In this document: positions 9,082-64,000 of the stretch, in pieces
Numbering within the stretch: position 1 is the first letter of the stretch
Layout of the letters: each line of letters starts with the position of its first letter
IMG/VR virus record: IMGVR_UViG_3300045988_116681
Location: 48,632-112,631 of that record
Strand: one strand, 5' to 3'
DNA from: a virus
DNA: 64,000 nucleotides
Notes under the pieces: generated by a model
Database searches by the model: none
Seen by the model: the letters and a program-made list of their open reading frames with translations, nothing else
What the model was told of the DNA's origin: nothing
Translations under genes and position numbers: made by a program

Positions 9082-9854
9082 TTAATCATTATTATATTTT
9101 CCTCTCCACCTAAACAACTTCTCTGTTTTCTTAGGCTGATTATTCTTATTATAGTCAAGCGTTCTTCTCAATTCCTTTTCCCAGACAACTTCAAAATCGT
9201 CTGGCGCTTCTTGCTCGGAAATAAATACAATACATCTCTTAGAAAGTTCACGCATATATTCCCAAAATTCTTCGTGGTTAAAATCGCCAGTTGTATAACC
9301 AGTGGTTTTAGCATAAGGCGGGTCACAATATACAACCGCTCCATCTGGAATATCGACTTCACGATAATCAAGACAAGTAAAGTTGGCGTTTTGCACACCT
9401 TGTAAGTCACGAAGTAAGCTACGTTCCGCTCGGGCACAATAATTGTCACCTCGTTTATTACTTGCCAATCCACCAAACCACTTACCACCAAACGAACAGC
9501 CAAAACCAACAAAACCAGCTAACGCCTTATTCTCGTCTTTGTGCTCTTTGACGTAATAGTATTCTTCTTTAGTGATAATAGAAGGTGGTGTCCAGCCAGA
9601 TTGTAAGCCTTTCCACATTTCAATCAAATATGGATGTTTGTCATTAAGAATTTTGGTTTCTGCTTTTACTTTCGCTTCAACTGCACAAGACCCACAAAAC
9701 AGACTTACGAATGTCTGCCCCCCCCAAGTTCAAGGTGTGGTTGATAACTTGTGCAATCTGAGTTGAGATACGAGATTTTCCGCCCATGTATTGCATTGTT
9801 AATTACCTCCGAAATTTGTTTAGAAATACGAGATTTACCGCCTAAGTAACGCAT
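9082..9854 (-). CDS. Dam-like (D12 class) N6-adenine DNA methyltransferase, out of frame at a G8 tract in this assembly (candidate phase-variable gene)
   Basis: The body 9082..9627 carries DPPY. Upstream there are two ATGs (9854 and 9796), each encoding M(R/Q)Y(L/M)GGKSRIS... Motif I (FVSLFCGSCAV) is reached only with G7/G10 from ATG2 or G9 from ATG1. With G8 both reading frames stop. Confidence 0.8.
9718..9725 (-). repeat. G8 homopolymer in the 5' coding region of the Dam-like methyltransferase
   Basis: Counted C8 on the plus strand. Flanks read AACTT-G8-CAGACA on the sense strand. Confidence 0.95.
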
Positions 9855-9885: not shown

Positions 9886-10605
9886 TTATCTCATTTTAGT
9901 CGCTTTGTCAATACGCTCTTTGGCGATTTCAAAATAATTTTCATCAAGTTCCATACCGATAAAATTACGATTTGTATTGGCGCAAGCTACGCCTGTACTG
10001 CCAGACCCCATACAGTTGTCGAGAACGGTCATTCCTTCATTGGTATAGGTCTTAATTAGCCATTCAAGTAGGGCTACTGGCTTCTGTGTAGGATGAACAC
10101 GACTTGCGTCACGATTGAAAGAAAGAATAGACAACGGATTTCTTTCGCCGTTCTTGCTTTCGCTCCATGCTTGTTTTCTATCACCATAATTATCTGATAG
10201 CGAACCGTTCTTTGTACGAGTATAAGGCGTACTATACCAGAATTGCTTATTATATACTGGCTTTTTCTTATAGAAGATTGCAATTTCTTCATGAGACTTT
10301 AGTGGTTTTACATTGGCGTTAAGAAAATCACAGCCACGATTTTTATTCCAGACAAGATTATAACGCCACATCTTTGTGTTAGACAGCATAAGATTAGCCA
10401 TAAACAAGCCATCACAGAATAGAGCAATTACGCCATTGTTGGTGATGATACGATTGTACTGTTCCCACAACTTATCAAATGGAACAATCGTATCCCACTT
10501 ATTTTTGGTCGAGCCATAAGGCAAATCACATAGAATCATATCCACCGACTGGGGGGGGATATGGGGCATAAGTTCAAGGCAATCGCCATTCTTAATATCA
10601 ATCAT
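9886..10605 (-). CDS. DNA methyltransferase (N6_N4_Mtase family, beta class)
   Basis: DLPY follows the N-terminal domain. The C-terminus has VLDNCMGSGSTGVA (FxGxG-like) and IGMELDENY. Confidence 0.85.
   Translation of the reverse strand: MIDIKNGDCLELMPHIPPQSVDMILCDLPYGSTKNKWDTIVPFDKLWEQYNRIITNNGVIALFCDGLFMANLMLSNTKMWRYNLVWNKNRGCDFLNANVKPLKSHEEIAIFYKKKPVYNKQFWYSTPYTRTKNGSLSDNYGDRKQAWSESKNGERNPLSILSFNRDASRVHPTQKPVALLEWLIKTYTNEGMTVLDNCMGSGSTGVACANTNRNFIGMELDENYFEIAKERIDKATKMR
10551..10558 (+). repeat. G8 (C8 on the coding strand) homopolymer in codons 15-18 of the methyltransferase
   Basis: The coding strand reads CAT ATC CCC CCC CAG. The gene is in frame (ON) as assembled. Confidence 0.95.
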
Positions 10606-10633: not shown

Positions 10634-11155
10634 TTACTTCTTTTGAATTTCTTCAAAGACAATCTGCTTTGGTAGCATCTTATGGCATACATACACACTA
10701 CTGAAAGGTGGGTTAAGGCTGGGCTTCTGGTCTGCGTAGTCCTTGAAGTAAGCCACTCTGCGGTTAAGATACATGATTTCAAACTCATTGTTCTTAAACA
10801 TATCGAATCTTCGCTGAGATTCAAACAAGCCTACAACACCCACCAACATTGCGAACGGCTTGCCAATTTCAAACAGTCGTTCCAACACTTCTGTCTTGAC
10901 GCTATAAGGCGGATTGCTGATAATCATGTCGCACTGTGGTACTGGCGTTGTGAAAAAGTCCTGACCATTATCAATGTGCGTACAGATTACCTTGTTGCCC
11001 TGTGCTTTAAGCATTTTAACAAAGTGTGATTCTTCTGTGTCAAAAGGACACCATACTGTCAGTTGGGGGGGGGCGTAAACCAAGATAGGCTTGACCGCAT
11101 AGGGCGGTGTATAGAAGTTATCATTGCCAGAGCCAGCTACTTTATCCATTTTCAT
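10634..11155 (-). CDS. N6-adenine DNA methyltransferase (NPPY motif)
   Basis: Contains ISNPPYS and an N-terminal YTPP motif. ATG at 11155 follows GGAGAG. Confidence 0.75.
   Translation of the reverse strand: MKMDKVAGSGNDNFYTPPYAVKPILVYAPPQLTVWCPFDTEESHFVKMLKAQGNKVICTHIDNGQDFFTTPVPQCDMIISNPPYSVKTEVLERLFEIGKPFAMLVGVVGLFESQRRFDMFKNNEFEIMYLNRRVAYFKDYADQKPSLNPPFSSVYVCHKMLPKQIVFEEIQKK
11065..11073 (+). repeat. G9 (C9 on the coding strand) homopolymer in the 5' part of the NPPY methyltransferase
   Basis: The coding strand reads TAC GCC CCC CCC CAA. In frame as assembled. The plus-strand flanks GTCAGTT-G9-CGTAAAC resemble those of the tract at 25553. Confidence 0.95.
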
Positions 11156-11168
11156 GATTGCTCTCTCC

Positions 11169-11624
11169 TTACTTAATCTCAATAATTTTTTCTGCGTTCC
11201 CAATTATCATATCATTGGAAACGCTTTTAACATAAAAGAAATACTTCTTTACTCCGTCCCTTACTTTGTAGATGATAAAGATATAGTCTTGTCCAAGAAC
11301 AAATGGCTCATCGTCTGTGTATTGAATGGTTTGGCTAACAACTTGTTCGTCAATGATTTCAGCGTGAGCGTCTAACCACGCTGAATCAATTTCTTCTACG
11401 CAACAAGCGGGATAAGAAAAATTTTCTGTACCGTTATAATAAGTGGTATAGTAGTCAAATTTACCGTTATTGCTCTTCTTGGCTTCTACAATATGCCCCC
11501 AATCTCCACATCGAGGAAGGATACCGAAAATAAAATCAATGCCGTCTACAGTGTCTACGAGTCTTTCGTCAAATTCTTTAGCACTTTTCAGCGCTTCTTC
11601 CCAAGGCTTAATATAAACTTTCAT
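11169..11624 (-). CDS. hypothetical protein (tandem paralog 1)
   Basis: MKVYIKPWEEALKSAKEF..; a paralog of the next gene upstream. Confidence 0.6.
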   Translation of the reverse strand: MKVYIKPWEEALKSAKEFDERLVDTVDGIDFIFGILPRCGDWGHIVEAKKSNNGKFDYYTTYYNGTENFSYPACCVEEIDSAWLDAHAEIIDEQVVSQTIQYTDDEPFVLGQDYIFIIYKVRDGVKKYFFYVKSVSNDMIIGNAEKIIEIK

Positions 11625-25238: not shown

Positions 25239-25544
25239 TTAGTGGAATAATAGCACTTGGATTCCATACCAATTTGTGAGACAATTCAAAGTAATATCGT
25301 GTTCTGTTATGCTGACAACCATCCGATTTGCGTTTTGAGTATAAAAATAGCCTGATTGCACAAAGGTTTCTGCAACGTATTCTGTTGATAAAGAAGGATA
25401 CAAACTTCCGCTTACCACAATCATTTTCACAGGAGCGTTGAGAGGAATCACTTTGTTGATACCCTGCTCTAATTCCCCTATTTCGACTGTTGTTACTTGA
25501 AGTGCTGTACCTTCCAACATTTCCTTCATTACTTTTGCATCCAT
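25239..25544 (-). CDS. family B small protein (B4)
   Basis: MDAKVMKEMLEG... It is a paralog of the proteins at 32610, 34998 and 40870. Confidence 0.6.
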   Translation of the reverse strand: MDAKVMKEMLEGTALQVTTVEIGELEQGINKVIPLNAPVKMIVVSGSLYPSLSTEYVAETFVQSGYFYTQNANRMVVSITEHDITLNCLTNWYGIQVLLFH

Positions 25545-25552
25545 TACTTACG

Positions 25553-25559
25553 CCCCCCC
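25553..25559 (-). repeat. G7 homopolymer 8 nt upstream of the B4 ATG
   Basis: Sense strand reads TTCAGTT-G7-CGTAAGTA-ATG. Confidence 0.95.
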
Positions 25560-25611
25560 AACTGAACGAGAAGTTTGTAAGTTGTGAGCGTCAGGAGGAT
25601 TGCTTACGCGC

Positions 25612-25656
25612 TCAACGTAAGCCCCCCCCCAGTGAAACAATGGTTTGGTTCTTCAT
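25612..25656 (-). CDS. leader ORF L6 (14 aa as assembled) containing a G9 tract
   Basis: AAGGAGG, 9 nt, then ATG. It translates to MKNQTIVSLGGGLR*, and the stop lies inside the hairpin GCTTACG-ttgagcg-CGTAAGC. Confidence 0.45.
   Translation of the reverse strand: MKNQTIVSLGGGLR
25622..25630 (-). repeat. G9 homopolymer in leader ORF L6
   Basis: Counted C9 on the plus strand. Confidence 0.95.
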
Positions 25657-25689
25657 AGACCAAATCCTCCTTTATAAAATATATTAACC

Positions 25690-30147: not shown

Positions 30148-31878
30148 TTATTCCTCCCCATACATACCCGCTCTATCGTTAATAACAAGAACTCGTAGCA
30201 AATCTTCACTCAAGTCAAGACCCTTGCCATTGCCCTTGAGATAGCCCTTGTCTACCAACTTCTTAATAGTTGCCTTGCCCCAGTCTGGAACTTCAGCAAC
30301 ACTATTATATACCTTATTATACTTGTCGTATACTTGTTCAGCAATCTTACCAGCCACTTGATTAGCAATCTTCTTTGCTTCGGACTGAGCAATAGCTGTA
30401 GTTTCTGCCTTAGTCATGTCATCAACCTTTCTAACCATTTGTAAAAATTCTGTCCATTGTTCATAGTGTTTTACAAAAGGTTCAGGACAGTTACCAACAA
30501 TAAAAGTTCTTCCCTTTTGACGAATAAGAATATATCCTGTTGGCACACTTACACACGAAACTCGTGCATTTCTTTTTTCAACACTATATTGTTTATCACC
30601 TATTGTATAATTACAAGTGGCAATATCTACACTATCATAATGATATTTTTTATAATGATTTTTAGCATGAAGAGCCTTTTTTGCCCTCATTCCATGCGTA
30701 GCACAAATAGCTTGAACAACGTCTAAATTTTTTTCAATAACGGAGCAATAATTATTTTTTGCTACGCATCCATCAACTTGTAACAATTCTTCCCAAAAAA
30801 CTTCAAATTGATTTTGTGTCATTTCAATCCAATCATAGGTAAATTGTTTATCAGATAACCATTTGCAACACCAATCATAAGTAATTTTGTCAAATTTTAC
30901 ATAAATTAGAGTACTTCCATCATTTTTATAAGAAATCTGAGGAACAATTTCCATTTCATTTAACAAAGACAGTAATCTATCAATTTTTCTTTGTCTTTTA
31001 AAATGGAACTCGATACCATAAATTGAATTAGAAGGTTTCCATCTTCTATAATGACCATCACCTTGAAGCCATACTAAAAAACGAATTTCATTGTCTGAAA
31101 GAGGTAGACCTTTATTTTCATAAAAACCGTTGGTTTTTATCATGGTTGTTCTGCCTTTGTCAAGAATCTCTTGATAAGATTTTTCTTCCCATCTCTCGTT
31201 AGCGTGATAAAAACGCGCCCACATACGGTGATTAGCAGTAGCTTCAAAATTATGGTTCTTTAGAACTTCAGCTTCGTAAGGCTCAACCACGCTACTAACA
31301 GCGCCAAAAGATAGTCTATCAGTATTAGTGTCATACTGCATAACTTCTTCTCCAACCTTAATATCTCCAAGAGCCTTCCAACCTTCTCGTGTTAGAAGTT
31401 CGGTTGAATCCAAAGGTAAACAATACTTATGCGTAACATGATAGTGCATACACACATGGTTAATATCAATACCATACTGTTCCATTAGCCACTGTACCAG
31501 CTTTACAGTGCGCTTCTGGGTTTCCATAGTAATTACATATTCACCGTTCTTCCAGTCGCTACACATTTCAATACCAATGGAATTAACGTTGCGACAGCTA
31601 TTGTAATAATAGCCTGTTTCACTACCACAATGCCATGCTGTGTTAGCAAGGTTTACAGTCTGCCAAATTTCATTCTCGTCAACAAAGAAATGTGCGCTTG
31701 CATTAAGCCCACCGCAACGAGCAAAATAATCTGCATTGTTCTTTGCAGTATCGCCCTTGCCAGCAGTAAAGTGAATAACAATCCATTGAATCTTATGCTT
31801 TACGCCATTCTTAGTTCGACCATACATGAAATTAGATTCATTACATTGCTTAAATTGAAAATAAGGTTTTTCTGCCAT
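30148..31878 (-). CDS. N-acetylmuramoyl-L-alanine amidase endolysin (Amidase_2) interrupted by an intein
   Basis: The exteins join as ..HVTHKY|CPEPF.., restoring the K.CP zinc-ligand motif. The N-extein carries the AHFFVD and GIEMC motifs. The C-terminal tail is a putative wall-binding region. Confidence 0.85.
   Translation of the reverse strand: MAEKPYFQFKQCNESNFMYGRTKNGVKHKIQWIVIHFTAGKGDTAKNNADYFARCGGLNASAHFFVDENEIWQTVNLANTAWHCGSETGYYYNSCRNVNSIGIEMCSDWKNGEYVITMETQKRTVKLVQWLMEQYGIDINHVCMHYHVTHKYCLPLDSTELLTREGWKALGDIKVGEEVMQYDTNTDRLSFGAVSSVVEPYEAEVLKNHNFEATANHRMWARFYHANERWEEKSYQEILDKGRTTMIKTNGFYENKGLPLSDNEIRFLVWLQGDGHYRRWKPSNSIYGIEFHFKRQRKIDRLLSLLNEMEIVPQISYKNDGSTLIYVKFDKITYDWCCKWLSDKQFTYDWIEMTQNQFEVFWEELLQVDGCVAKNNYCSVIEKNLDVVQAICATHGMRAKKALHAKNHYKKYHYDSVDIATCNYTIGDKQYSVEKRNARVSCVSVPTGYILIRQKGRTFIVGNCPEPFVKHYEQWTEFLQMVRKVDDMTKAETTAIAQSEAKKIANQVAGKIAEQVYDKYNKVYNSVAEVPDWGKATIKKLVDKGYLKGNGKGLDLSEDLLRVLVINDRAGMYGEE
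30490..31422 (-). mobile_element. intein (311 aa) with a LAGLIDADG homing endonuclease, inside the endolysin
   Basis: Starts CLPLDSTELLT..GDIKVGEEV (Hint N-terminus) and ends ..ILIRQKGRTFIVGN|C (Asn plus Cys+1). Two LAGLIDADG-like motifs: LVWLQGDGH and LLQVDGCV. Confidence 0.8.
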
Positions 31879-32167: not shown

Positions 32168-32590
32168 TTATGCGACTTTTATCCATTCTGTAGGATAACC
32201 AATAATTATTTTTGCAGTCGAAGAAGCAAAATAATCTTTTGCGATTTCTCCTTGCTTTTTAACATATATAATTTTATATTTAATTGTAAAATTATATGTT
32301 CGAGTAAGCGGAGTGCGAGAATAAATTTGTATACCAAATCCAACTTCTTTAGAATTGAGATATAGAGAATTATCGTCAGTAGTATAATAACCCGGTGGTT
32401 CTACATCTACTGTACCGCTTACCCACTGTAAGCCCACAGCAGTGTCTATTCCTAATAATTGAAGTGAAGCAGACGTACCATTTATGAAAGTATTGTTTAT
32501 TGCTAATTCAAAAGTTCCTTCATATACGCCCAACTCCGCAATGCCAGTATCAATTCCTTTACTTCCAAGGTGATTGACGATACTATTCAT
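32168..32590 (-). CDS. family A small protein (A, partner of B1)
   Basis: MNSIVNHLG... Own SD GAGGTGA. The start sits in an ATGA context. Confidence 0.65.
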   Translation of the reverse strand: MNSIVNHLGSKGIDTGIAELGVYEGTFELAINNTFINGTSASLQLLGIDTAVGLQWVSGTVDVEPPGYYTTDDNSLYLNSKEVGFGIQIYSRTPLTRTYNFTIKYKIIYVKKQGEIAKDYFASSTAKIIIGYPTEWIKVA

Positions 32591-32976
32591 GCAATCACCT
32601 CGTTTCTATTTAATAGAACGCTACTGCATAAGCCGAGTCTTTCCCTTGTAAATGGTCTATGGTCATTGTTTTGCCAGCGAATGTTACATCTATATAATCG
32701 TTTTCTGAGTTGGAGTCGGCATAATGGTAAGTTGTTGTTTGTTCGGAATAATAAATGCTTACTGAATATCCGTAATTGTATCCACTGGCAGAATAATACA
32801 TACTTAAAGAAACAAATTTCGGGACGTGAGAGAAAGTAAATTTTATTTCTTCGTTGTAGGCTTCTGCTTCTTTGTATTCCGCAGTTAAGCCTTGCACTTG
32901 TAAAGGCTCTCCCATAATCTTTCCGTTCATCTACTCTGCCCCCCCCAAGTCTCATTGAGGTTTGCATATTATACAT
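32587..32976 (-). CDS. leader ORF L2, which as assembled (G8) continues through all of B1 in the -1 frame and stops on the start codon of the A gene
   Basis: This is the same frame as track ORF 32587..33030. ATG at 32976 follows AAAGGA. Its TGA (32587-32589) overlaps ATG 32588-32590. Confidence 0.4.
   Translation of the reverse strand: MYNMQTSMRLGGGRVDERKDYGRAFTSARLNCGIQRSRSLQRRNKIYFLSRPEICFFKYVLFCQWIQLRIFSKHLLFRTNNNLPLCRLQLRKRLYRCNIRWQNNDHRPFTRERLGLCSSVLLNRNEVIA
32610..32930 (-). CDS. family B small protein (B1)
   Basis: MNGKIMGEPLQVQGLTAEYKE... A paralog of the 40870 protein (shared ..GLTAEY.. and ..VTF(A/S)GK.. segments). Confidence 0.65.
   Translation of the reverse strand: MNGKIMGEPLQVQGLTAEYKEAEAYNEEIKFTFSHVPKFVSLSMYYSASGYNYGYSVSIYYSEQTTTYHYADSNSENDYIDVTFAGKTMTIDHLQGKDSAYAVAFY
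32939..32946 (-). repeat. G8 homopolymer 8 nt upstream of the B1 ATG
   Basis: Sense strand reads GAGACTT-G8-CAGAGTAG-ATG. Confidence 0.95.
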
Positions 32977-33002
32977 ATTGCTCAAATTCCTTTCTGAGCA
33001 AT
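32977..33002. repeat. inverted repeat ATTGCTCA-10 nt-TGAGCAAT
   Basis: The TTGAGCAA motif in both orientations. The loop contains the leader SD. Confidence 0.8.
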
Positions 33003-33026
33003 GAGAAGGAGATGAAGGATAAAAAG

Positions 33027-33356
33027 TCAAGACAAAGTGCCTAATTCAAGATACTTAAAATAGGGTGAAATTGAATTATTATAATAGTTTTCAACCTTGA
33101 AATGCCCCTCCCCGAAATAGAACCACACCGCAGGACTATTTTCGCCAAAGGCACCATACGAGAACTCTATTACTTCCTTAAAAACACTCACTTTACCAAT
33201 CATTACGCTGTTGTCGGTCATCATCAACTTAAAATATAAACTCGCATCTGTTGTTGCAATTTTTACAACTGAGCTACCTTCTGCTACATCTTGATGAATA
33301 GCACTCTTAAAATGAATTGTTCCTTCTACACCCTTACCTGTTACAATCCCATCCAT
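33027..33356 (-). CDS. family A small protein
   Basis: MDGIVTGKG....LELGTLS. Confidence 0.65.
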   Translation of the reverse strand: MDGIVTGKGVEGTIHFKSAIHQDVAEGSSVVKIATTDASLYFKLMMTDNSVMIGKVSVFKEVIEFSYGAFGENSPAVWFYFGEGHFKVENYYNNSISPYFKYLELGTLS

Positions 33357-33406
33357 CAGCCGACACTTCCCTTCATGCCAGCCATCTCATTGCTCATATT
33401 AAATTT

Positions 33407-33469
33407 TAGGAGAATGCTAACGCATTGCCCCCCCCAACCGAAGTCAGGGTTGACTGAATGTTAAACATA
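33407..33469 (-). CDS. leader ORF L1 (20 aa as assembled)
   Basis: AAGGAGAA, 4 nt, then ATG. It translates to MFNIQSTLTSVGGGNALAFS*. Confidence 0.45.
33429..33436 (-). repeat. G8 homopolymer in L1
   Basis: Counted C8 on the plus strand. Confidence 0.95.
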
Positions 33470-33514
33470 ATGTTCTCCTTTTTGTGTAGTTATATTTGAG
33501 CAATGAGTAGAGGG

Positions 33515-33859
33515 TTATTCTAACAACCCAAAATCCACCGAGGAAATATACAAAGACAAATTATTATTGTTAAAACCAAAACCAACATATTCTATTCCTT
33601 CAGTATTAGTATAATCTATGCTAAACGAAGGAGAGTAGTCGCCTGAACTATTTCTAAAAGTAAAATAATTAGTACCTCTTAAAGTTTCATACTTAAAAAT
33701 GCTAATTTGTCCATATAAATCAACGATTTTAACATATGGCGCAATTCTGTCTACAAGAAAGTTAATATGGAACGTATTTAACGCATCGTCTTTATATGAT
33801 TTTTTACTCATGAATGTCAAAGCATTAGCAGTAAATGGCTTATTAACAATCCCATTCAT
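33515..33859 (-). CDS. family A small protein
   Basis: MNGIVNKPF....VDFGLLE. Confidence 0.65.
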   Translation of the reverse strand: MNGIVNKPFTANALTFMSKKSYKDDALNTFHINFLVDRIAPYVKIVDLYGQISIFKYETLRGTNYFTFRNSSGDYSPSFSIDYTNTEGIEYVGFGFNNNNLSLYISSVDFGLLE

Positions 33860-33969
33860 ACAGTCACCTGCTTTCGGTGACTCACATTGCTCAAATATTC
33901 AGTTGTTAGGGAGTTATTGCCCCCCCCCAAGTGAAGCATAAGTTCACTCAGAGAAAACTTGATACGCAT
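33856..33969 (-). CDS. leader ORF L3 (37 aa), terminating in ATGA on the start of the A gene
   Basis: AAGGAGTG SD. It translates to MRIKFSLSELMLHLGGGNNSLTTEYLSNVSHRKQVTV*. Its TGA overlaps ATG 33859. Confidence 0.5.
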   Translation of the reverse strand: MRIKFSLSELMLHLGGGNNSLTTEYLSNVSHRKQVTV

Positions 33970-34003
33970 GGTATCACTCCTTGTTGTTTAATTGAGCAAC
34001 GTG
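33883..34003. repeat. 12-bp inverted repeats (1 mismatch) CACATTGCTCAA / TTGAGCAACGTG flanking leader L3
   Basis: Arms at 33883-33894 and 33992-34003. Confidence 0.8.
33920..33928 (-). repeat. G9 homopolymer in L3
   Basis: Counted C9 on the plus strand. Confidence 0.95.
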
Positions 34004-34013
34004 TGTGATGTGA

Positions 34014-34415
34014 TTAGGATTTTAAGGCAAGCGCTAAATAGAAGCGAGTACCATCTTGGACATTATTTTTGAACAATCGGCATATTATACCAGTATTGAT
34101 AATGTTAAAATCACAATAATAAATATCGCTTGTTCCATTTGTAGTACCCGTTTTATATATTTTAGAACTTAATAAAACATGATTGCTTGTACTGCCACCT
34201 ATAACATCAGCCTTATACTCATATATAGATAGACACGGTGAAGCATAGTACCACGCATTGTCACAACCAATAAGCAAAAGCTTGCAACTATTGTGCGATT
34301 CTTCGTACCAATATAGTATCTGAAATTGTTCACTGGTAGCTTCTGCGGTGATAATATCATCAACATTGATACTTATGTCAGCCAGTTCAGCCAGCTTATT
34401 CACAATCCCATTCAT
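34014..34415 (-). CDS. family A small protein
   Basis: MNGIVNKLAEL... ATG at 34415; the track ORF begins at the GTG one codon earlier. Confidence 0.65.
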   Translation of the reverse strand: MNGIVNKLAELADISINVDDIITAEATSEQFQILYWYEESHNSCKLLLIGCDNAWYYASPCLSIYEYKADVIGGSTSNHVLLSSKIYKTGTTNGTSDIYYCDFNIINTGIICRLFKNNVQDGTRFYLALALKS

Positions 34416-34493
34416 CACATGACCCCCTTACTTGCGTATAGGAGGTTGCCAATCCTGTTGCTCAAAGGAAAGGCGTTAATGACCATTAGAAGG

Positions 34494-34532
34494 TCAGAAG
34501 AACGCCCCCCCCAAGTTAAAGCGAAGGTTCAT
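34494..34532 (-). CDS. leader ORF L4 (12 aa as assembled)
   Basis: AAAGGAGAA SD. It translates to MNLRFNLGGAFF*. Confidence 0.4.
   Translation of the reverse strand: MNLRFNLGGAFF
34505..34512 (-). repeat. G8 homopolymer in L4
   Basis: Counted C8 on the plus strand. Confidence 0.95.
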
Positions 34533-34588
34533 AATTTTGTTCTCCTTTGTTTAATTTTGAGCAACATTAGATGGGTGGTTAGATTGAT

Positions 34589-34978
34589 TTATCCAAACAC
34601 ATAATAATGAACGTTTTTTATTTTGCCACTTTGATTATTCAAATGAAAAGTTATTTTATTGTTTGAATAATCATAGTTCAAATTTTCTATGTCTATAGAA
34701 GAATATCGCACATAAGTTGGGTTGTCACCATCATATTCATAAAGTCTATATGAAAACCCCGAAGTTGAGTTGAGTGGAATCATTTGAACAAATTGCGCTC
34801 TAATTAACATAGATGACGGATTTGGAATAACCACTACTGCCATCGCTTGTGCGTCTATTGGCAATGATTGAAAATCAAAAATAGGAAGTGATACTTCATG
34901 AATGTTACTTGAATAACTACCTTCAAATGAAAAACACTTGTTTTGATTTACAAGTACAGGATTCACGATACCATTCAT
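34589..34978 (-). CDS. family A small protein (partner of B3)
   Basis: MNGIVNPVL... ATG at 34978 in a TGATG context. Confidence 0.65.
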   Translation of the reverse strand: MNGIVNPVLVNQNKCFSFEGSYSSNIHEVSLPIFDFQSLPIDAQAMAVVVIPNPSSMLIRAQFVQMIPLNSTSGFSYRLYEYDGDNPTYVRYSSIDIENLNYDYSNNKITFHLNNQSGKIKNVHYYVFG

Positions 34979-34997
34979 CAAGCCACCCCCTTGAGGG

Positions 34998-35309
34998 TCA
35001 GCCTAAGAATGTCACCAATAAGGGGTCGCTTACGTTGTTGTATTCTATCCGAACAGTGCCAACAGAATAACGAACTATCTGCACTCTTGCTGAAGTAACA
35101 CTTTGGTCTATTAAATATAATTTGTCTGCCGAAAGTAAAGGTAAATAAATCATTGCACCTATCAACGCACTTATGTTGTCTACACTTATTGTGCAAAATA
35201 AAGGTGTTACATCGAAGCCAAAAGTTAGCCCTCTGGTAATGGATTTTGCTTGCAATACTTTTAACCCGCTCATGGATTTTTCTACTTCTTGAATAATCTT
35301 TCCATCCAT
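34998..35309 (-). CDS. family B small protein (B3)
   Basis: MDGKIIQEVEKSM... ATG at 35309 in a TAATG overlap with leader L5. Confidence 0.6.
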   Translation of the reverse strand: MDGKIIQEVEKSMSGLKVLQAKSITRGLTFGFDVTPLFCTISVDNISALIGAMIYLPLLSADKLYLIDQSVTSARVQIVRYSVGTVRIEYNNVSDPLLVTFLG

Positions 35310-35410
35310 TAGTACGCCCACCTCTCTTGTTGCTCAACCGAGAGGTAATCATCGGTGGGCTTACTTGGCGTATGCCCCCCCCAGTGACGGGGAGTTTTAG
35401 TCTTAATCAT
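35309..35410 (-). CDS. leader ORF L5 (33 aa), terminating TAATG on the B3 start
   Basis: GGAGAA SD. It translates to MIKTKTPRHWGGHTPSKPTDDYLSVEQQERWAY*. Confidence 0.45.
   Translation of the reverse strand: MIKTKTPRHWGGHTPSKPTDDYLSVEQQERWAY
35375..35382 (-). repeat. G8 homopolymer in L5
   Basis: Counted C8 on the plus strand. Confidence 0.95.
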
Positions 35411-35834: not shown

Positions 35835-36521
35835 TTAAGCCAACTTAGCAAGCATAGCGTCCATCTGAGCCTTTGCAGAAGCCAATACCTTAACTTCTTG
35901 CTCTGCTAACTTACCAGTTAGTTCAGTTGCAAGGGTAATCGCTTTAACAGTTTCCTTATCCTCACAGCTATTAGCAAACTGCCGCAAAAGATTGCAATGT
36001 GTGGTCAGTTTAGTAATGAGCGTTTGCATTGCTACATACAAACTAACAATATCAGCCTTTGGATAAATCACACATTCCTTGCCGTCAGCGTGATAAGGAA
36101 ATTCCTCAACGCCCATAACAACTGCATTGAAGATGTTGCCAATGTTGGCTTGGTCGTTTGCTGTTAGGCTGAAATGTTCATCGCCGTAAGAAGTCTTAAC
36201 GTCAACGCCAGCGTAAATAGTCTGCTCAGTAGTATCATTGAGTGACTTAATAGCTTCTGCACGAACTTCTTCAATGGTCGGCTCGTATGGTGTCGGCTTA
36301 ACTTCTTCGTCTACATTGATATGAACAGCATTACCAGTACACTTCCATACCTTGTAATCAGCCTTTTCGTATGCTACCAGTAGCTTGCCATCATCAGAAG
36401 TGAACATTAGTTCATCGCCAAGTTCAATATCGTGATTGCCGTTAAGATACATAGTACATACCTTATCGTTCAGCATACCAGTAACATTGTTATATGTCTT
36501 GCCATTAGTTAGTAGTTTCAT
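35835..36521 (-). CDS. hypothetical protein (tail-fibre-associated, DUF4376-like)
   Basis: 228 aa, coupled by ATGA to the tail-fibre-like gene. The family call comes from recalled sequence patterns only. Confidence 0.5.
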   Translation of the reverse strand: MKLLTNGKTYNNVTGMLNDKVCTMYLNGNHDIELGDELMFTSDDGKLLVAYEKADYKVWKCTGNAVHINVDEEVKPTPYEPTIEEVRAEAIKSLNDTTEQTIYAGVDVKTSYGDEHFSLTANDQANIGNIFNAVVMGVEEFPYHADGKECVIYPKADIVSLYVAMQTLITKLTTHCNLLRQFANSCEDKETVKAITLATELTGKLAEQEVKVLASAKAQMDAMLAKLA

Positions 36522-36919
36522 TACTGCACCTCACCTACAACTTGAACAACAAACCCTGATTGTGGAGCAGAATTACCGCTTGTAGTAAGAGTTAGTGTGT
36601 TATTACCTGTCTGACCATAGTCTGCAAGCAGAGCGAACGCAGCTTTTTCATTTGCCGCTGTTGCCGAGTCAGAAGATGGTAGAAGATAAATGATTGGCTG
36701 ATAGCGCATTGTTTCAGCAAGACCTTGAATAGTCTGTGTCTGCTTGTAAACGCCGCCCTGTAGTGTCCAGCCAGCTTTCGTAAAGGTTGCAGTACCGAAC
36801 ACTGTTTTGCCAACTTCAAGGTTGGTTCGTGCTCCCAGCGCCGTAGTAGCGCCAGTACCGCCATCGGGGATTGAAACTGGGGTGGAAATACCCTGTCCCA
36901 GTATACCGCCAAAACCCAT
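36521..36919 (-). CDS. tail-fibre-like protein
   Basis: VSIPDGGTGATTALGARTNL matches the GGTGATTAxxAR.NLG motif that recurs at the N-termini of phage tail-fibre proteins. Confidence 0.6.
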   Translation of the reverse strand: MGFGGILGQGISTPVSIPDGGTGATTALGARTNLEVGKTVFGTATFTKAGWTLQGGVYKQTQTIQGLAETMRYQPIIYLLPSSDSATAANEKAAFALLADYGQTGNNTLTLTTSGNSAPQSGFVVQVVGEVQ

Positions 36920-40869: not shown

Positions 40870-41193
40870 TTAGAAGAAGCCTACTGCAAAAACCTTGCTT
40901 GCACTGACTGAAGATAATTCTATATTTTTCCCAGAAAATGTTACATAAAATGAATTGGTTTGTGAACCTTCCAAAGCGTAATACACATAGCAATTGTCTG
41001 GAAACCATGCTATATTCACGCTGTATGCTGCGTTTGAAGTGTACCTTTGAGGACTCCAAAGTGTTAGGCTTACAAAACTCGGCGCTTGGGAAAAAGAAAG
41101 CGTGACTTCTTGTTGATGGACTTCTTCTTCGAGATACTCTGCCGTCAGCCCGTTTTCCTGCTCCACAAATTCCTTCATTACTTTTGCGTTCAT
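40870..41193 (-). CDS. family B small protein (B2)
   Basis: MNAKVMKEFVEQENGLTAEY... Confidence 0.65.
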   Translation of the reverse strand: MNAKVMKEFVEQENGLTAEYLEEEVHQQEVTLSFSQAPSFVSLTLWSPQRYTSNAAYSVNIAWFPDNCYVYYALEGSQTNSFYVTFSGKNIELSSVSASKVFAVGFF

Positions 41194-41201
41194 TTAATCT
41201 G

Positions 41202-41209
41202 CCCCCCCC
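41202..41209 (-). repeat. G8 homopolymer 8 nt upstream of the B2 ATG
   Basis: Sense strand reads GCGAGTT-G8-CAGATTAA-ATG. Confidence 0.95.
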
Positions 41210-41243
41210 AACTCGCGCCAAGGTTGACAGATTACAGCTTACA

Positions 41244-41294
41244 TCACCGTGTAAGCCCCCCCCAAGTGAAACGGAGGTTTGGTAAATTGAACAT
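41244..41294 (-). CDS. leader ORF L7 (16 aa as assembled)
   Basis: AAAGGAGGA SD. It translates to MFNLPNLRFTWGGLTR*. Confidence 0.45.
   Translation of the reverse strand: MFNLPNLRFTWGGLTR
41256..41263 (-). repeat. G8 homopolymer in L7
   Basis: Counted C8. Followed by the hairpin GCTTAC-acggtgat-GTAAGC. Confidence 0.95.
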
Positions 41295-41332
41295 AAAAAT
41301 GTCCTCCTTTAATTATATTATGAGGAAAATCC

Positions 41333-46681: not shown

Positions 46682-47518
46682 TTAGAACACCAGTCCCTTC
46701 ATAGCTTCGTTAATCTGAGCCTGTTCATGCTTAATGTAACGAGTGGTAGTAGCGATAGAATTATGCCCCAACATTGCACTAATAGTTGCTACACCTACGC
46801 CATTAGCATTAGCAATAGTAGCCGCTCCCGCTCTAAGCGCATGATTAGTAATTTCATTCCAGAACGGAATGCCAGCACGCTTTGCAGTCAACTTCAGCAT
46901 CTTGTTAAGATTGCTATTATCAAGATGTTCACCACGTTCAGAAGTGAACAAATACTCACCATCTGCACGCTCAAACTTGATGTAGTTATCAATGCTTTCC
47001 TTTGCCTGTTCATTGACATAAATCGTGCGTTCCTTCGCGCCCTTGCCGAGAATAACAATCTGATTATCAATCATGTTATTGTAGTCCTCAAAAGTGATGG
47101 AAGTTAACTCGCTGAAACGAAGTCCAGTAGAGCAATACAGAGCAATAACTGCAATATCTCTGAACTTTTTGCAGTTGTGAAGCATCTTGCGTACATCTTC
47201 TGCGGAGATATAATGCTTTTCCTTGTTCTTAATCTTAGGAGAAGTAAGGTCAAGAGCAGGATTCTCATTGATAACCTTGGCAGAAGTCAGAAACTTGAAG
47301 TAATTCCTAACTGCACTAATCTGGATGTTCATGGATGCGGTAGACAGATTGCTGATAGACGCTTTCCACGCGGTCAAGTCGAGGAAAGAAATTTCTTCGA
47401 CAGGCTTATTAACGAATGCCAGCATCTTATCTACATAAAGCAAATAGTTCTTGATGGTGTTTTCGGACTTCTTATCTGCTACCAGAGAAGCCTTGTAATA
47501 CTCGTTAATGTTAGTCAT
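46682..47518 (-). CDS. tyrosine recombinase (phage integrase / XerC-D family)
   Basis: ..TGLRFSEL.., HALRAGAAT, LGHNSIATTTRYIK (R..H.R..Y). ATG at 47518 follows AAGGAGAG. Confidence 0.85.
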   Translation of the reverse strand: MTNINEYYKASLVADKKSENTIKNYLLYVDKMLAFVNKPVEEISFLDLTAWKASISNLSTASMNIQISAVRNYFKFLTSAKVINENPALDLTSPKIKNKEKHYISAEDVRKMLHNCKKFRDIAVIALYCSTGLRFSELTSITFEDYNNMIDNQIVILGKGAKERTIYVNEQAKESIDNYIKFERADGEYLFTSERGEHLDNSNLNKMLKLTAKRAGIPFWNEITNHALRAGAATIANANGVGVATISAMLGHNSIATTTRYIKHEQAQINEAMKGLVF

Positions 47519-47549
47519 TGAAATCTCTCCTTCGTTTCTTGATGTGCTT

Positions 47550-47578
47550 ATTGTAACATGGCACAAGCCAAAAGTCAA
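47550..47578 (-). promoter_or_regulatory. sigma-A-type promoter
   Basis: TTGACT-17-TACAAT. Confidence 0.65.
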
Positions 47579-63992: not shown

Positions 63993-64000
63993 CCCCCCCC
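63993..64000 (-). repeat. G homopolymer of at least 8 nt, cut by the window edge
   Basis: The plus strand ends ..AATGCCCCCCCC. Confidence 0.9.

Follow-up and report, generated by a model that had tools for sequence, protein, structure and literature searches.

The 64-kb window studied here, the whole stretch of DNA analysed from the viral record IMGVR_UViG_3300045988_116681, contains a tandem array of small genes preceded by short leader open reading frames (ORFs) that carry poly-G tracts, in a region where every gene lies on the minus strand. Three of these leaders, A1, A2 and A3, are bracketed by inverted repeats. An initial annotation had described the three repeat pairs, and all were recovered on the plus strand: CTCATTGCTCA at 33387-33397 with TGAGCAATGAG at 33497-33507 around the A3 leader (perfect, spacer 99 bp), CACATTGCTCAA at 33883-33894 with TTGAGCAACGTG at 33992-34003 around A2 (one mismatch, spacer 97 bp), and TGTTGCTCAAA at 34456-34466 with TTTGAGCAACA at 34556-34566 around A1 (perfect, spacer 89 bp). 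Each spacer indeed has, on the minus strand, a Shine-Dalgarno (SD) sequence, an ATG and a G8-9 tract; the two arms are adjacent at B1 (32977-33002), and B3 retains a single copy (35330-35337) in the loop of a CTCTC/GAGAG hairpin. In our analysis, the element is best seen as a predicted long-range helix in the mRNA that accompanies a phase-variable switch of translational coupling, and the array of poly-G leader switches is more notable than the repeats alone.

The window was compared with ~30 assemblies of ~114-kb human-gut phages, namely two ~114-kb IMG/VR contigs, ~15 metagenome contigs retrieved via a pattern scan (with names mostly of human-gut or ERZ assemblies), and ENA and Logan contigs found by protein look-ups. 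Orientation was counted in 52 A-type leaders and 57 gene cassettes and then in 20 more leaders (~72 leaders in total), and reading frames were parsed in 34 leaders from the window and its relatives. Beyond the two relatives, the IMG/VR pattern scan gave one chance match, and the scan of a genome collection gave one 2.6-kb relative, its other 65 matches being due to chance. A similarity search of the array DNA against 50,697 phage records returned no match, the A and B proteins matched no family in PHROGs or Pfam (tail-fibre PHROGs were matched by the upstream genes only), and no Rfam family matched.

On the mRNA, the leaders share a common layout. The stop codon of the preceding gene is followed after 9-25 nt by the upstream arm (box L), a strong SD and AUG, ~7-14 codons and a G6-10 tract; beyond the tract come two OFF-frame stops, the downstream arm (box R), a local hairpin with the main gene's SD as its 3' strand, and an ON-frame stop that overlaps the main start as UGAUG or AUGA. 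The box cores, TTGCTCAA in L and TTGAGCAA in R, are 8 bases each and mutually complementary. In mRNA sense (minus strand, as for the array features below), boxes L and R of A1 are TGTTGCTCAAA (34556-34566, conserved in relatives) and TTTGAGCAACA (34456-34466), those of A2 are CACGTTGCTCAA (33992-34003) and TTGAGCAATGTG (33883-33894), and those of A3 are CTCATTGCTCA (33497-33507) and TGAGCAATGAG (33387-33397). A single G length in three yields a frame ending on the main start in 34/34 leaders, and in 34/34 both OFF frames stop 7-34 nt upstream of box R; thus, by sequence logic, only ON-frame ribosomes cross box R.

The window itself carries a mixture of states, with B3 (G8) and A2 (G9) ON and A1 and A3 (both G8) OFF. 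In A1 (leader ORF 34494-34532, G tract 34505-34512), a G7 or G10 frame would end as UGAUG on the main start, and a local hairpin (ACCUCCU/AGGGGGU, 34422-34447) masks the SD of the main gene (34014-34415). The A2 leader ORF (33856-33969, 37 amino acids, G tract 33920-33928) runs through box R to a stop that overlaps the main ATG as AUGA; its hairpin, AGUCACC-GAAAGCA-GGUGACU at 33862-33882, masks the SD of the A2 main gene (33515-33859) and covaries between alignment columns 165-171 and 188-194. For A3 (leader ORF 33406-33468, G tract 33428-33435), a G9 frame would end as UGAUG on the start of the gene at 33027-33356. The adjacent boxes of B1 form a hairpin (32977-33002) with an 8-bp stem and a 10-nt loop containing an SD-like AAAGGAA (-11.2 kcal/mol, z -2.5), after which a G8 tract (32939-32946) precedes the gene at 32610-32930. 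The first leader of the array, B3 (leader ORF 35309-35410, G tract 35375-35382), has a UAAUG overlap, and its orphan box R (35330-35337) occupies the loop of the SD-masking hairpin of B3. In predicted folds (e.g., 33406-33480 and 34470-34512), a CU-rich stretch (CUCC, CCUUUCC) immediately ahead of box R serves as partner for the G tract. In A3 this stretch can alternatively pair with the leader's own SD (GGAGAA/UUCUCC), and the length of the G tract might also tune leader initiation through such pairing.

The G tracts range in length from 6 to 10 and differ at orthologous leaders of near-identical genomes (e.g., the P0071 set, L203-L208), which indicates that they are hypermutable. With homopolymer length polymorphism and one productive frame in three, the leader unit is genetically a contingency locus. 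Contingency loci have been described in phages, including poly-G tracts in receptor-binding genes of Campylobacter phages and the T2/T4 loci (PMC10877375, PMC12633550), and the present leaders resemble them in their hypermutable G6-10 tracts, whose length differs between near-identical genomes, and in their location in a host-recognition region of a phage. However, the described phage tracts lie inside the regulated ORF, whereas here a separate leader ORF would act by translational coupling and is bracketed by conserved complementary boxes; one of these reports (PMC12633550) makes no mention of leaders, translational coupling or inverted repeats.

A chance origin of the repeat pairs is excluded. 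The pattern TTGCTCA-N80-110-TGAGCAA occurs 3 times in the window versus 0.01 times expected from 100 dinucleotide shuffles, and the 7-mer alone occurs 28 times versus 12.7 expected. Inverted repeats of 9-16 bp, 84-113 bp apart, are present at the three window sites and in all relatives, the boxes having been kept in every relative found, and they are among the few blocks common to leader types with unalignable peptides. On the coding strand, box L precedes box R without exception, and the array reads in every assembly as G, R, gene, L, G, R, gene and so on to a closing L, R, G, with the leader types following one order in all genomes (first, A1, A2, A3, A4, B1). The strict order of L and then R is predicted by base pairing and not by an orientation-free DNA site.

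Several lines of evidence point to pairing of the two boxes in RNA. No promoter or terminator is predicted within the leaders, and both arms lie on one predicted transcript. In isolated folds, the L-R pair probability is 0.9-1.0 for A1, A2, A3 and B1 (~1 for A1), with the closing helix present in both the minimum free energy (MFE) and centroid structures, and the leader domains reach z values of -4.4 to -5.8 against dinucleotide shuffles, a range that includes the 16-bp helix of the most divergent relative, L134. The RNAalifold consensus contains the helix in the A2 and A3 leader families. The A2 mismatch becomes a G.U wobble when read on the coding strand (GU in 12/12 sequences, alignment columns 32/161), and TTGGGCAA in L134 (9012) likewise gives a U.G wobble on that strand. 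The two pairs that flank the core are paired in 23/24 and 23/24 unique leaders, with pair types AU/GU/GC and CG/UG/UA, and sliding the partner lowers pairing from 79% to 34-40%. Thus, the L and R boxes most likely pair in the mRNA, as far as these folding models can tell.

The initial annotation had suggested that such a stem encloses the leader and is opened only by frames that read through its 3' arm. This hypothesis is partly supported: pairing around the leader is predicted and OFF frames do stop before the arm, so that the stem has support as a structure, while its role as a gate to be opened for expression has none. We infer from the folding models that the helix forms in vivo, and from its position that it insulates. 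In the reading that we favour, and to which we would give about even credence, the boxes, lying on a polycistronic late mRNA, would act over a long range as a clamp or insulator that separates independent poly-G switches of translational coupling. Box L, 9-25 nt after the stop of the prior gene, and box R, just after the OFF stops, would pair in a 9-16-bp helix that closes a domain of ~85-115 nt, within which lie the leader's SD and AUG, its hypermutable G tract and the stops of the OFF frames. The actual switch would be the poly-G leader and not the L-R helix: at one G length in three, the leader ORF would cross box R and the SD-hiding hairpin and end on the main start, where the overlapping stop (UGAUG/AUGA) would allow termination-reinitiation. 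Rather than gating the main ribosome-binding site (RBS), the helix would be a structural clamp that keeps neighbouring switch units independent, a barrier to non-translating, post-termination or scanning ribosomes, whether they arrive off the upstream cistron or have terminated in an OFF frame. An elongating ON-frame ribosome could unwind it, and the OFF state would be kept tight.

A number of observations weigh against this reading. Destroying box L in silico in 49 leaders left the unpaired probability of the main RBS at 0.37 versus 0.35 and that of the leader RBS at 0.54 versus 0.53; as accessibility is unchanged without the helix, the role that we propose is not derived from a computed effect. 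First-position leaders have a box R without an upstream box L, and the solitary poly-G leaders of the genome (41202/41256 and 25553/25622) have no boxes. Within the 8-nt core there is no covariation at all, and its changes are one-sided: an A.C in L100 (2750) and a C.A in L017 (2660) break the pair, and there is one U.G. Cognate L-R combinations do not give significantly longer helices than non-cognate ones (10.2 versus 9.9 bp in Watson-Crick pairs and 11.4 versus 11.4 with G.U; permutation p 0.09-0.13). A comparison of G.U with A.C mismatches as a test of the strand under selection gave roughly equal numbers of each and is uninformative. The local SD hairpin and the pre-G hairpin covary clearly in the same alignments, indicating that the divergence is sufficient to reveal covariation. 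Almost no homologues of the A proteins were found outside this phage clade, so that no distant lineage with different box sequences, which would provide the best test of pairing, was found either. Two further structural roles were considered and set aside. Masking of the downstream RBS by the L-R helix is at odds with the local hairpin that holds the main SD and with the accessibilities above, and masking of the main AUG by the 5' flank appeared in one MFE structure only, the flank being an unconserved part of the variable cassette. The solitary leaders lie in minus-strand regions (41190-41330 and 25540-25660) with two tandem G tracts each (G8+G8 and G9+G7) and a small hairpin between them; these two-tract leaders precede B-type genes (MNAKVMKE.. 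and MDAKVMKE..), lack TTGAGCAA boxes, and differ in tract length among relatives (G9+G8 in L068).

The choice of partner also counts against pairing around the leader. Every box L fits every box R, and pairing across genes is as good as pairing across leaders. Two such matches had been missed by the initial annotation: a perfect 14-bp match across a gene between 33492-33505 and 33885-33898, and a 15-bp match with one mismatch between 32995-33009 and 33382-33396. When the whole 2.9-kb array is folded, the MFE structure pairs box L of A2 with box R of A3 and box R of A2 with box L of A3. Covariation of the flanking pairs is equally good for the leader and the gene-bracketing schemes, the latter being 81% paired and scoring as well as leader pairing or better. 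It is therefore conceivable, though in our judgement unlikely, that the functional helix joins box R of one leader to box L of the next and loops out each cistron, or that both schemes compete, in which case translation through one box R would free its box L for other partners. Gene-bracketing helices are of equal or greater length (mean 10.9 Watson-Crick bp, reaching 15-16 bp in L001). Watson-Crick pairing at position -1 occurs in 29/30 unique gene-bracketing pairs versus 16/24 leader pairs, and the covariation score of 0.188 (0.138 shuffled) was reached in 2/500 shuffles. Moreover, the exchange unit between G tracts has R and L at its two ends. In statistical terms, however, there is no real difference between the two schemes, since every box follows the same consensus. 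Co-transcriptional folding prefers nearer pairing partners, which favours a partner ~100 nt away over one at 400-900 nt; ribosomes on a translated gene would hold a gene-spanning helix apart; and at B1 the adjacent L and R form a plain local hairpin. A more elaborate version, which we rate as decidedly improbable, treats the alternating boxes as a reconfigurable RNA scaffold, in which each L pairs with its own R or with that of the previous unit and ribosome traffic re-wires the neighbours. It draws on the mutual complementarity of all boxes and on the mixture of both schemes in the array MFE. If true, the independent poly-G switches would be coupled, allowing, for example, mutual exclusion or ordered expression of receptor-binding variants.

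The invariance of the core points to some sequence-specific constraint besides pairing, and the constraint on box R may come partly from the (L/M)-S-N that it encodes when A1-A3 are read in the ON frame. A rival explanation has the boxes conserved for their sequence and not for pairing alone, either as the site of a trans-acting factor (a protein of phage or host bound to the RNA duplex or to DNA) or as short homology or recombination linkers through which cassettes are deleted or swapped between co-infecting phages, in the manner of the PeSL elements of T4-type phages, for which there is a precedent (PMC2839356). This explanation is possible, although on balance we doubt it. The core is invariant in all leader types while the SD and pre-G hairpins of the same leaders covary freely, and the boxes are confined to the tandem array within the genome and absent from the solitary poly-G leaders. 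The arrays are highly mosaic: they have exchanged gene bodies, the breakpoints falling in the first codons and, at the far end of the variable body, no more than ~4 nt from box L, and the G tract divides leader halves that reassort. Two hybrid L boxes (L127, 5438, and L052, 1975), with the outer flank of an A1-type box L joined to an A2-type leader, indicate deletion between two direct L boxes. Nevertheless, the boxes are not where most mosaic junctions lie; these fall at the G tract or among the first codons (ATGAAYGGNATTGT). The fixed order of leader types fits ordinary homologous exchange between collinear genomes; it does not fit a site-specific shuffling of identical sites. Strict alternation of L and R would not be expected of a DNA site that works in either orientation, the spacing of 84-113 bp shifts with G length and hence shows no helical phasing for DNA looping, and no candidate factor was identified. 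The two sides of the G tract reassort independently between genomes across the related loci (e.g., L001, 6470; L017, 672/1188; and L077, 1573), and as a recurrent mosaic junction the tract is possibly a recombination hot spot, to judge from these sequences.

The second proposal of the initial annotation was that the repeats are sites for DNA inversion, with a tyrosine recombinase flipping the ~100-bp leader by recombining L with R, in the manner of fimS or cwpV, and turning the gene OFF whatever its G length. The recombinase gene is present (46682-47578, minus strand; a Phage_integrase domain with an N-terminal SAM-like domain), short inverted repeats with a common core surround a short segment at three or more sites, and a core without variation would suit a recombinase crossover site. 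Invertible DNA switches such as fimS of Escherichia coli, cwpV and flgB of Clostridioides difficile and the Mpi-controlled promoters of Bacteroides likewise have short common-core inverted repeats around a regulatory segment of ~100-300 bp upstream of surface or variable genes, at several sites with one repeat consensus. Tyrosine recombinases have a minimum invertible length, and the spacing of 84-113 bp is near it. The orientation data speak against inversion: none of the 52 + 20 A-type leaders and none of the 57 cassettes was inverted relative to the flanking genes in ~30 independent assemblies, although a minority orientation could stay hidden in such consensus sequences, which is why we keep a very small residual probability for this proposal. 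Unlike the known switches, the segments show no second orientation in ~72 copies and contain no promoter-like or terminator-like site; their SD, ATG and leader ORF lie on one strand only, and a hand check of the inverted strand found no consistent SD/ATG or open frame. The arms measure only 9-16 bp, and no box shows the pair of inverted binding arms, separated by a spacer, that a tyrosine recombinase would be expected to recognise. The repeats also lie on the predicted transcript, where the folding models pair them as RNA, and such a switch would duplicate the function already provided by the G tract.

The recombinase is Xer-like, scoring best on XerA/C/D models but under their cut-offs (XerA, 188 bits versus 220), and reaches 23-29 bits versus a cut-off of ~221 on tyrosine-type invertase models of the FimB/E type. 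It lies 12 kb from the array among replication genes (DnaB-like helicase, AAA_24, Pol III alpha and RecD-like), and no link to the boxes was found; a dedicated invertase (FimB/E-, RecV-, Mpi- or Hin-like) would usually sit adjacent to its switch. Related possibilities were also discarded. When 34456-34566 is inverted, it yields an ORF with SD and ATG in frame with the main-start overlap, but 33387-33507 has stops in all frames when inverted, so that the read-through was taken as a coincidence and a hidden second orientation was dismissed. As a palindrome or serine-recombinase crossover site, the box is too weak, only TTG/CAA being symmetric (3 + 3 around a 2-base centre). Inversion of the shufflon or Gin-Cin type does not fit cassettes that lie all on one strand in every assembly, each a complete ORF with its own start. 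The boxes are not integron attC sites, as their cores (TTGCTCAA/TTGAGCAA) are not RYYYAAC/GTTRRRY and the structure is a closing helix of only 9-16 bp around separate hairpins, not a near-continuous imperfect hairpin with extrahelical bases; the recombinase scored 63 bits versus a cut-off of 265 on the integron integrase model TIGR02249, its gene being 12 kb away. No consensus sites for a promoter or terminator were found at the boxes.

Returning to the clamp or insulator, the functionally closest systems appear by analogy to be the long-range pairing and reinitiation of RNA phage MS2 and leader-peptide attenuation. Work from the van Duin laboratory on MS2 reportedly established the Min Jou interaction and the reinitiation at the lysis gene after out-of-frame termination. 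As in MS2, distant complementary segments lie on one polycistronic phage mRNA, the structure would be melted only by a ribosome on the upstream ORF (here by the sequence logic of 34/34 leaders), and expression of the downstream cistron would rely on termination-reinitiation where a stop and a start overlap or lie close together. In contrast, the long-range helix of MS2 covers the downstream RBS, whereas here a local hairpin masks the main SD and the L-R helix encloses the leader; and where MS2 depends on rare ribosomal frameshifting, the frame here is set heritably by a hypermutable DNA tract. Leader-peptide translational attenuation, as in ermC and cat, is similar in that access to a hairpin-hidden downstream SD depends on where a ribosome stands on a short leader ORF. 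It differs in that here there is no drug-induced stalling and no evident alternative pairing; the frame decides, and the ribosome would reach the main start.

The array can also be compared with the PeSL cassettes of T4-type phages, which consist of a promoter and a terminator-like stem-loop (PMC2839356, PMC4122927). In both cases, conserved short intergenic elements bearing stems lie between small, highly variable ORFs in a hyperplastic region and coincide with the boundaries of swapped or deleted genes. The present elements differ in having no predicted promoter or terminator, a translated poly-G leader and a stem that spans ~100 nt. A mobile regulatory cassette of the PeSL type was accordingly rejected for the leaders, which lack promoter and terminator consensus and share with it only the presence of conserved linkers between variable ORFs.

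Judging from its flanking signals, the array is predicted to lie within one operon that runs from a sigma-70 promoter at 37004-36976 (consensus 12/12, TTGACA-17-TATAAT with TG) to a terminator-like hairpin at 31921-31903, both on the minus strand. The promoter would drive two genes that resemble tail fibres (PHROG tail fibre; 36521-36919 and 35835-36521), a gene for a membrane protein (PF06541; 35423-35851) and the array, whose small genes start MNGIV.. or MDGK..; the operon also holds an 85-amino-acid ORF, and an amidase endolysin and a phiLC3-type holin come next. The AlphaFold model of the A1 protein (pLDDT 81) had weak fold matches (E ~3e-3, TM 0.3-0.44), the top ones being phage tailspike, tail-fibre and baseplate-connector proteins, which for a predicted model is a hint and not an assignment. 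Two MNGIV/MNSIV-type genes (34589-34981 and 32168-32590) have no poly-G leader of their own; they begin 16-22 nt after B3 and B1 with an ordinary SD, and would thus be co-expressed with the switchable gene upstream.

Several other features of the window and its relatives deserve mention. The endolysin (30148-31878) has 576 amino acids in the window versus 249-262 in L128, L129, L131 and L134, and Pfam covers only residues 28-153; its ~310 extra amino acids have Cys at the start, an LVWLQGDGHY (LAGLIDADG-like) motif inside and ..VGN|C at the end, and on these sequence features the insert looks like an intein with a homing endonuclease. G/C8-9 tracts at 9718-9725, 10551-10558 and 11065-11073 fall within DNA methyltransferase genes or interrupt them. 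These genes are a D12-class fragment (9082-9627) whose N-terminal part is found upstream of the tract, N6_N4_Mtase (9886-10605) and a weak EcoRI-methylase-like ORF (10634-11203), and the phage thus appears to carry phase-variable methyltransferases. A C8 tract ends the window (63993-64000), which contains 13 G/C runs of at least 7 bases in total at a GC content of 39%. In a distant phage (L135, 5764-7699; L136, 236-2171), a homologue (31% identity) of the DUF4376 tail protein (228 amino acids) lies directly after an RVT_1 gene, which suggests a diversity-generating retroelement (DGR) at the equivalent locus instead of poly-G switches. As for the host, a 2596-bp array fragment (L152, CAKVMU010000225.1; 91% identical) was binned in a 'Candidatus Melainabacteria' metagenome-assembled genome, and SLH-domain proteins in L131 and L134 suggest a host with an S-layer; both are no more than a weak hint.

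If the reading of the boxes as a clamp or insulator is true, these phages carry a compact translational phase switch that combines a poly-G leader, stop-start coupling, an SD hairpin and a fencing long-range helix, repeated before each of four to six hypervariable ORFan genes beside the tail-fibre genes. The boxes are the least understood part of this unit. If they are only a structural accessory, they would be a modest detail of a more interesting switch, while a defined role, be it as an insulator, as the site of a factor or in cross-talk between neighbours, would be new for polycistronic mRNAs of bacteria and phages. With such a switch, one phage population could hold many combinations of putative host-recognition proteins with its gene content unchanged, a route to diversity other than DGRs, Gin/Cin inversion or the poly-G tracts inside ORFs of other phages.

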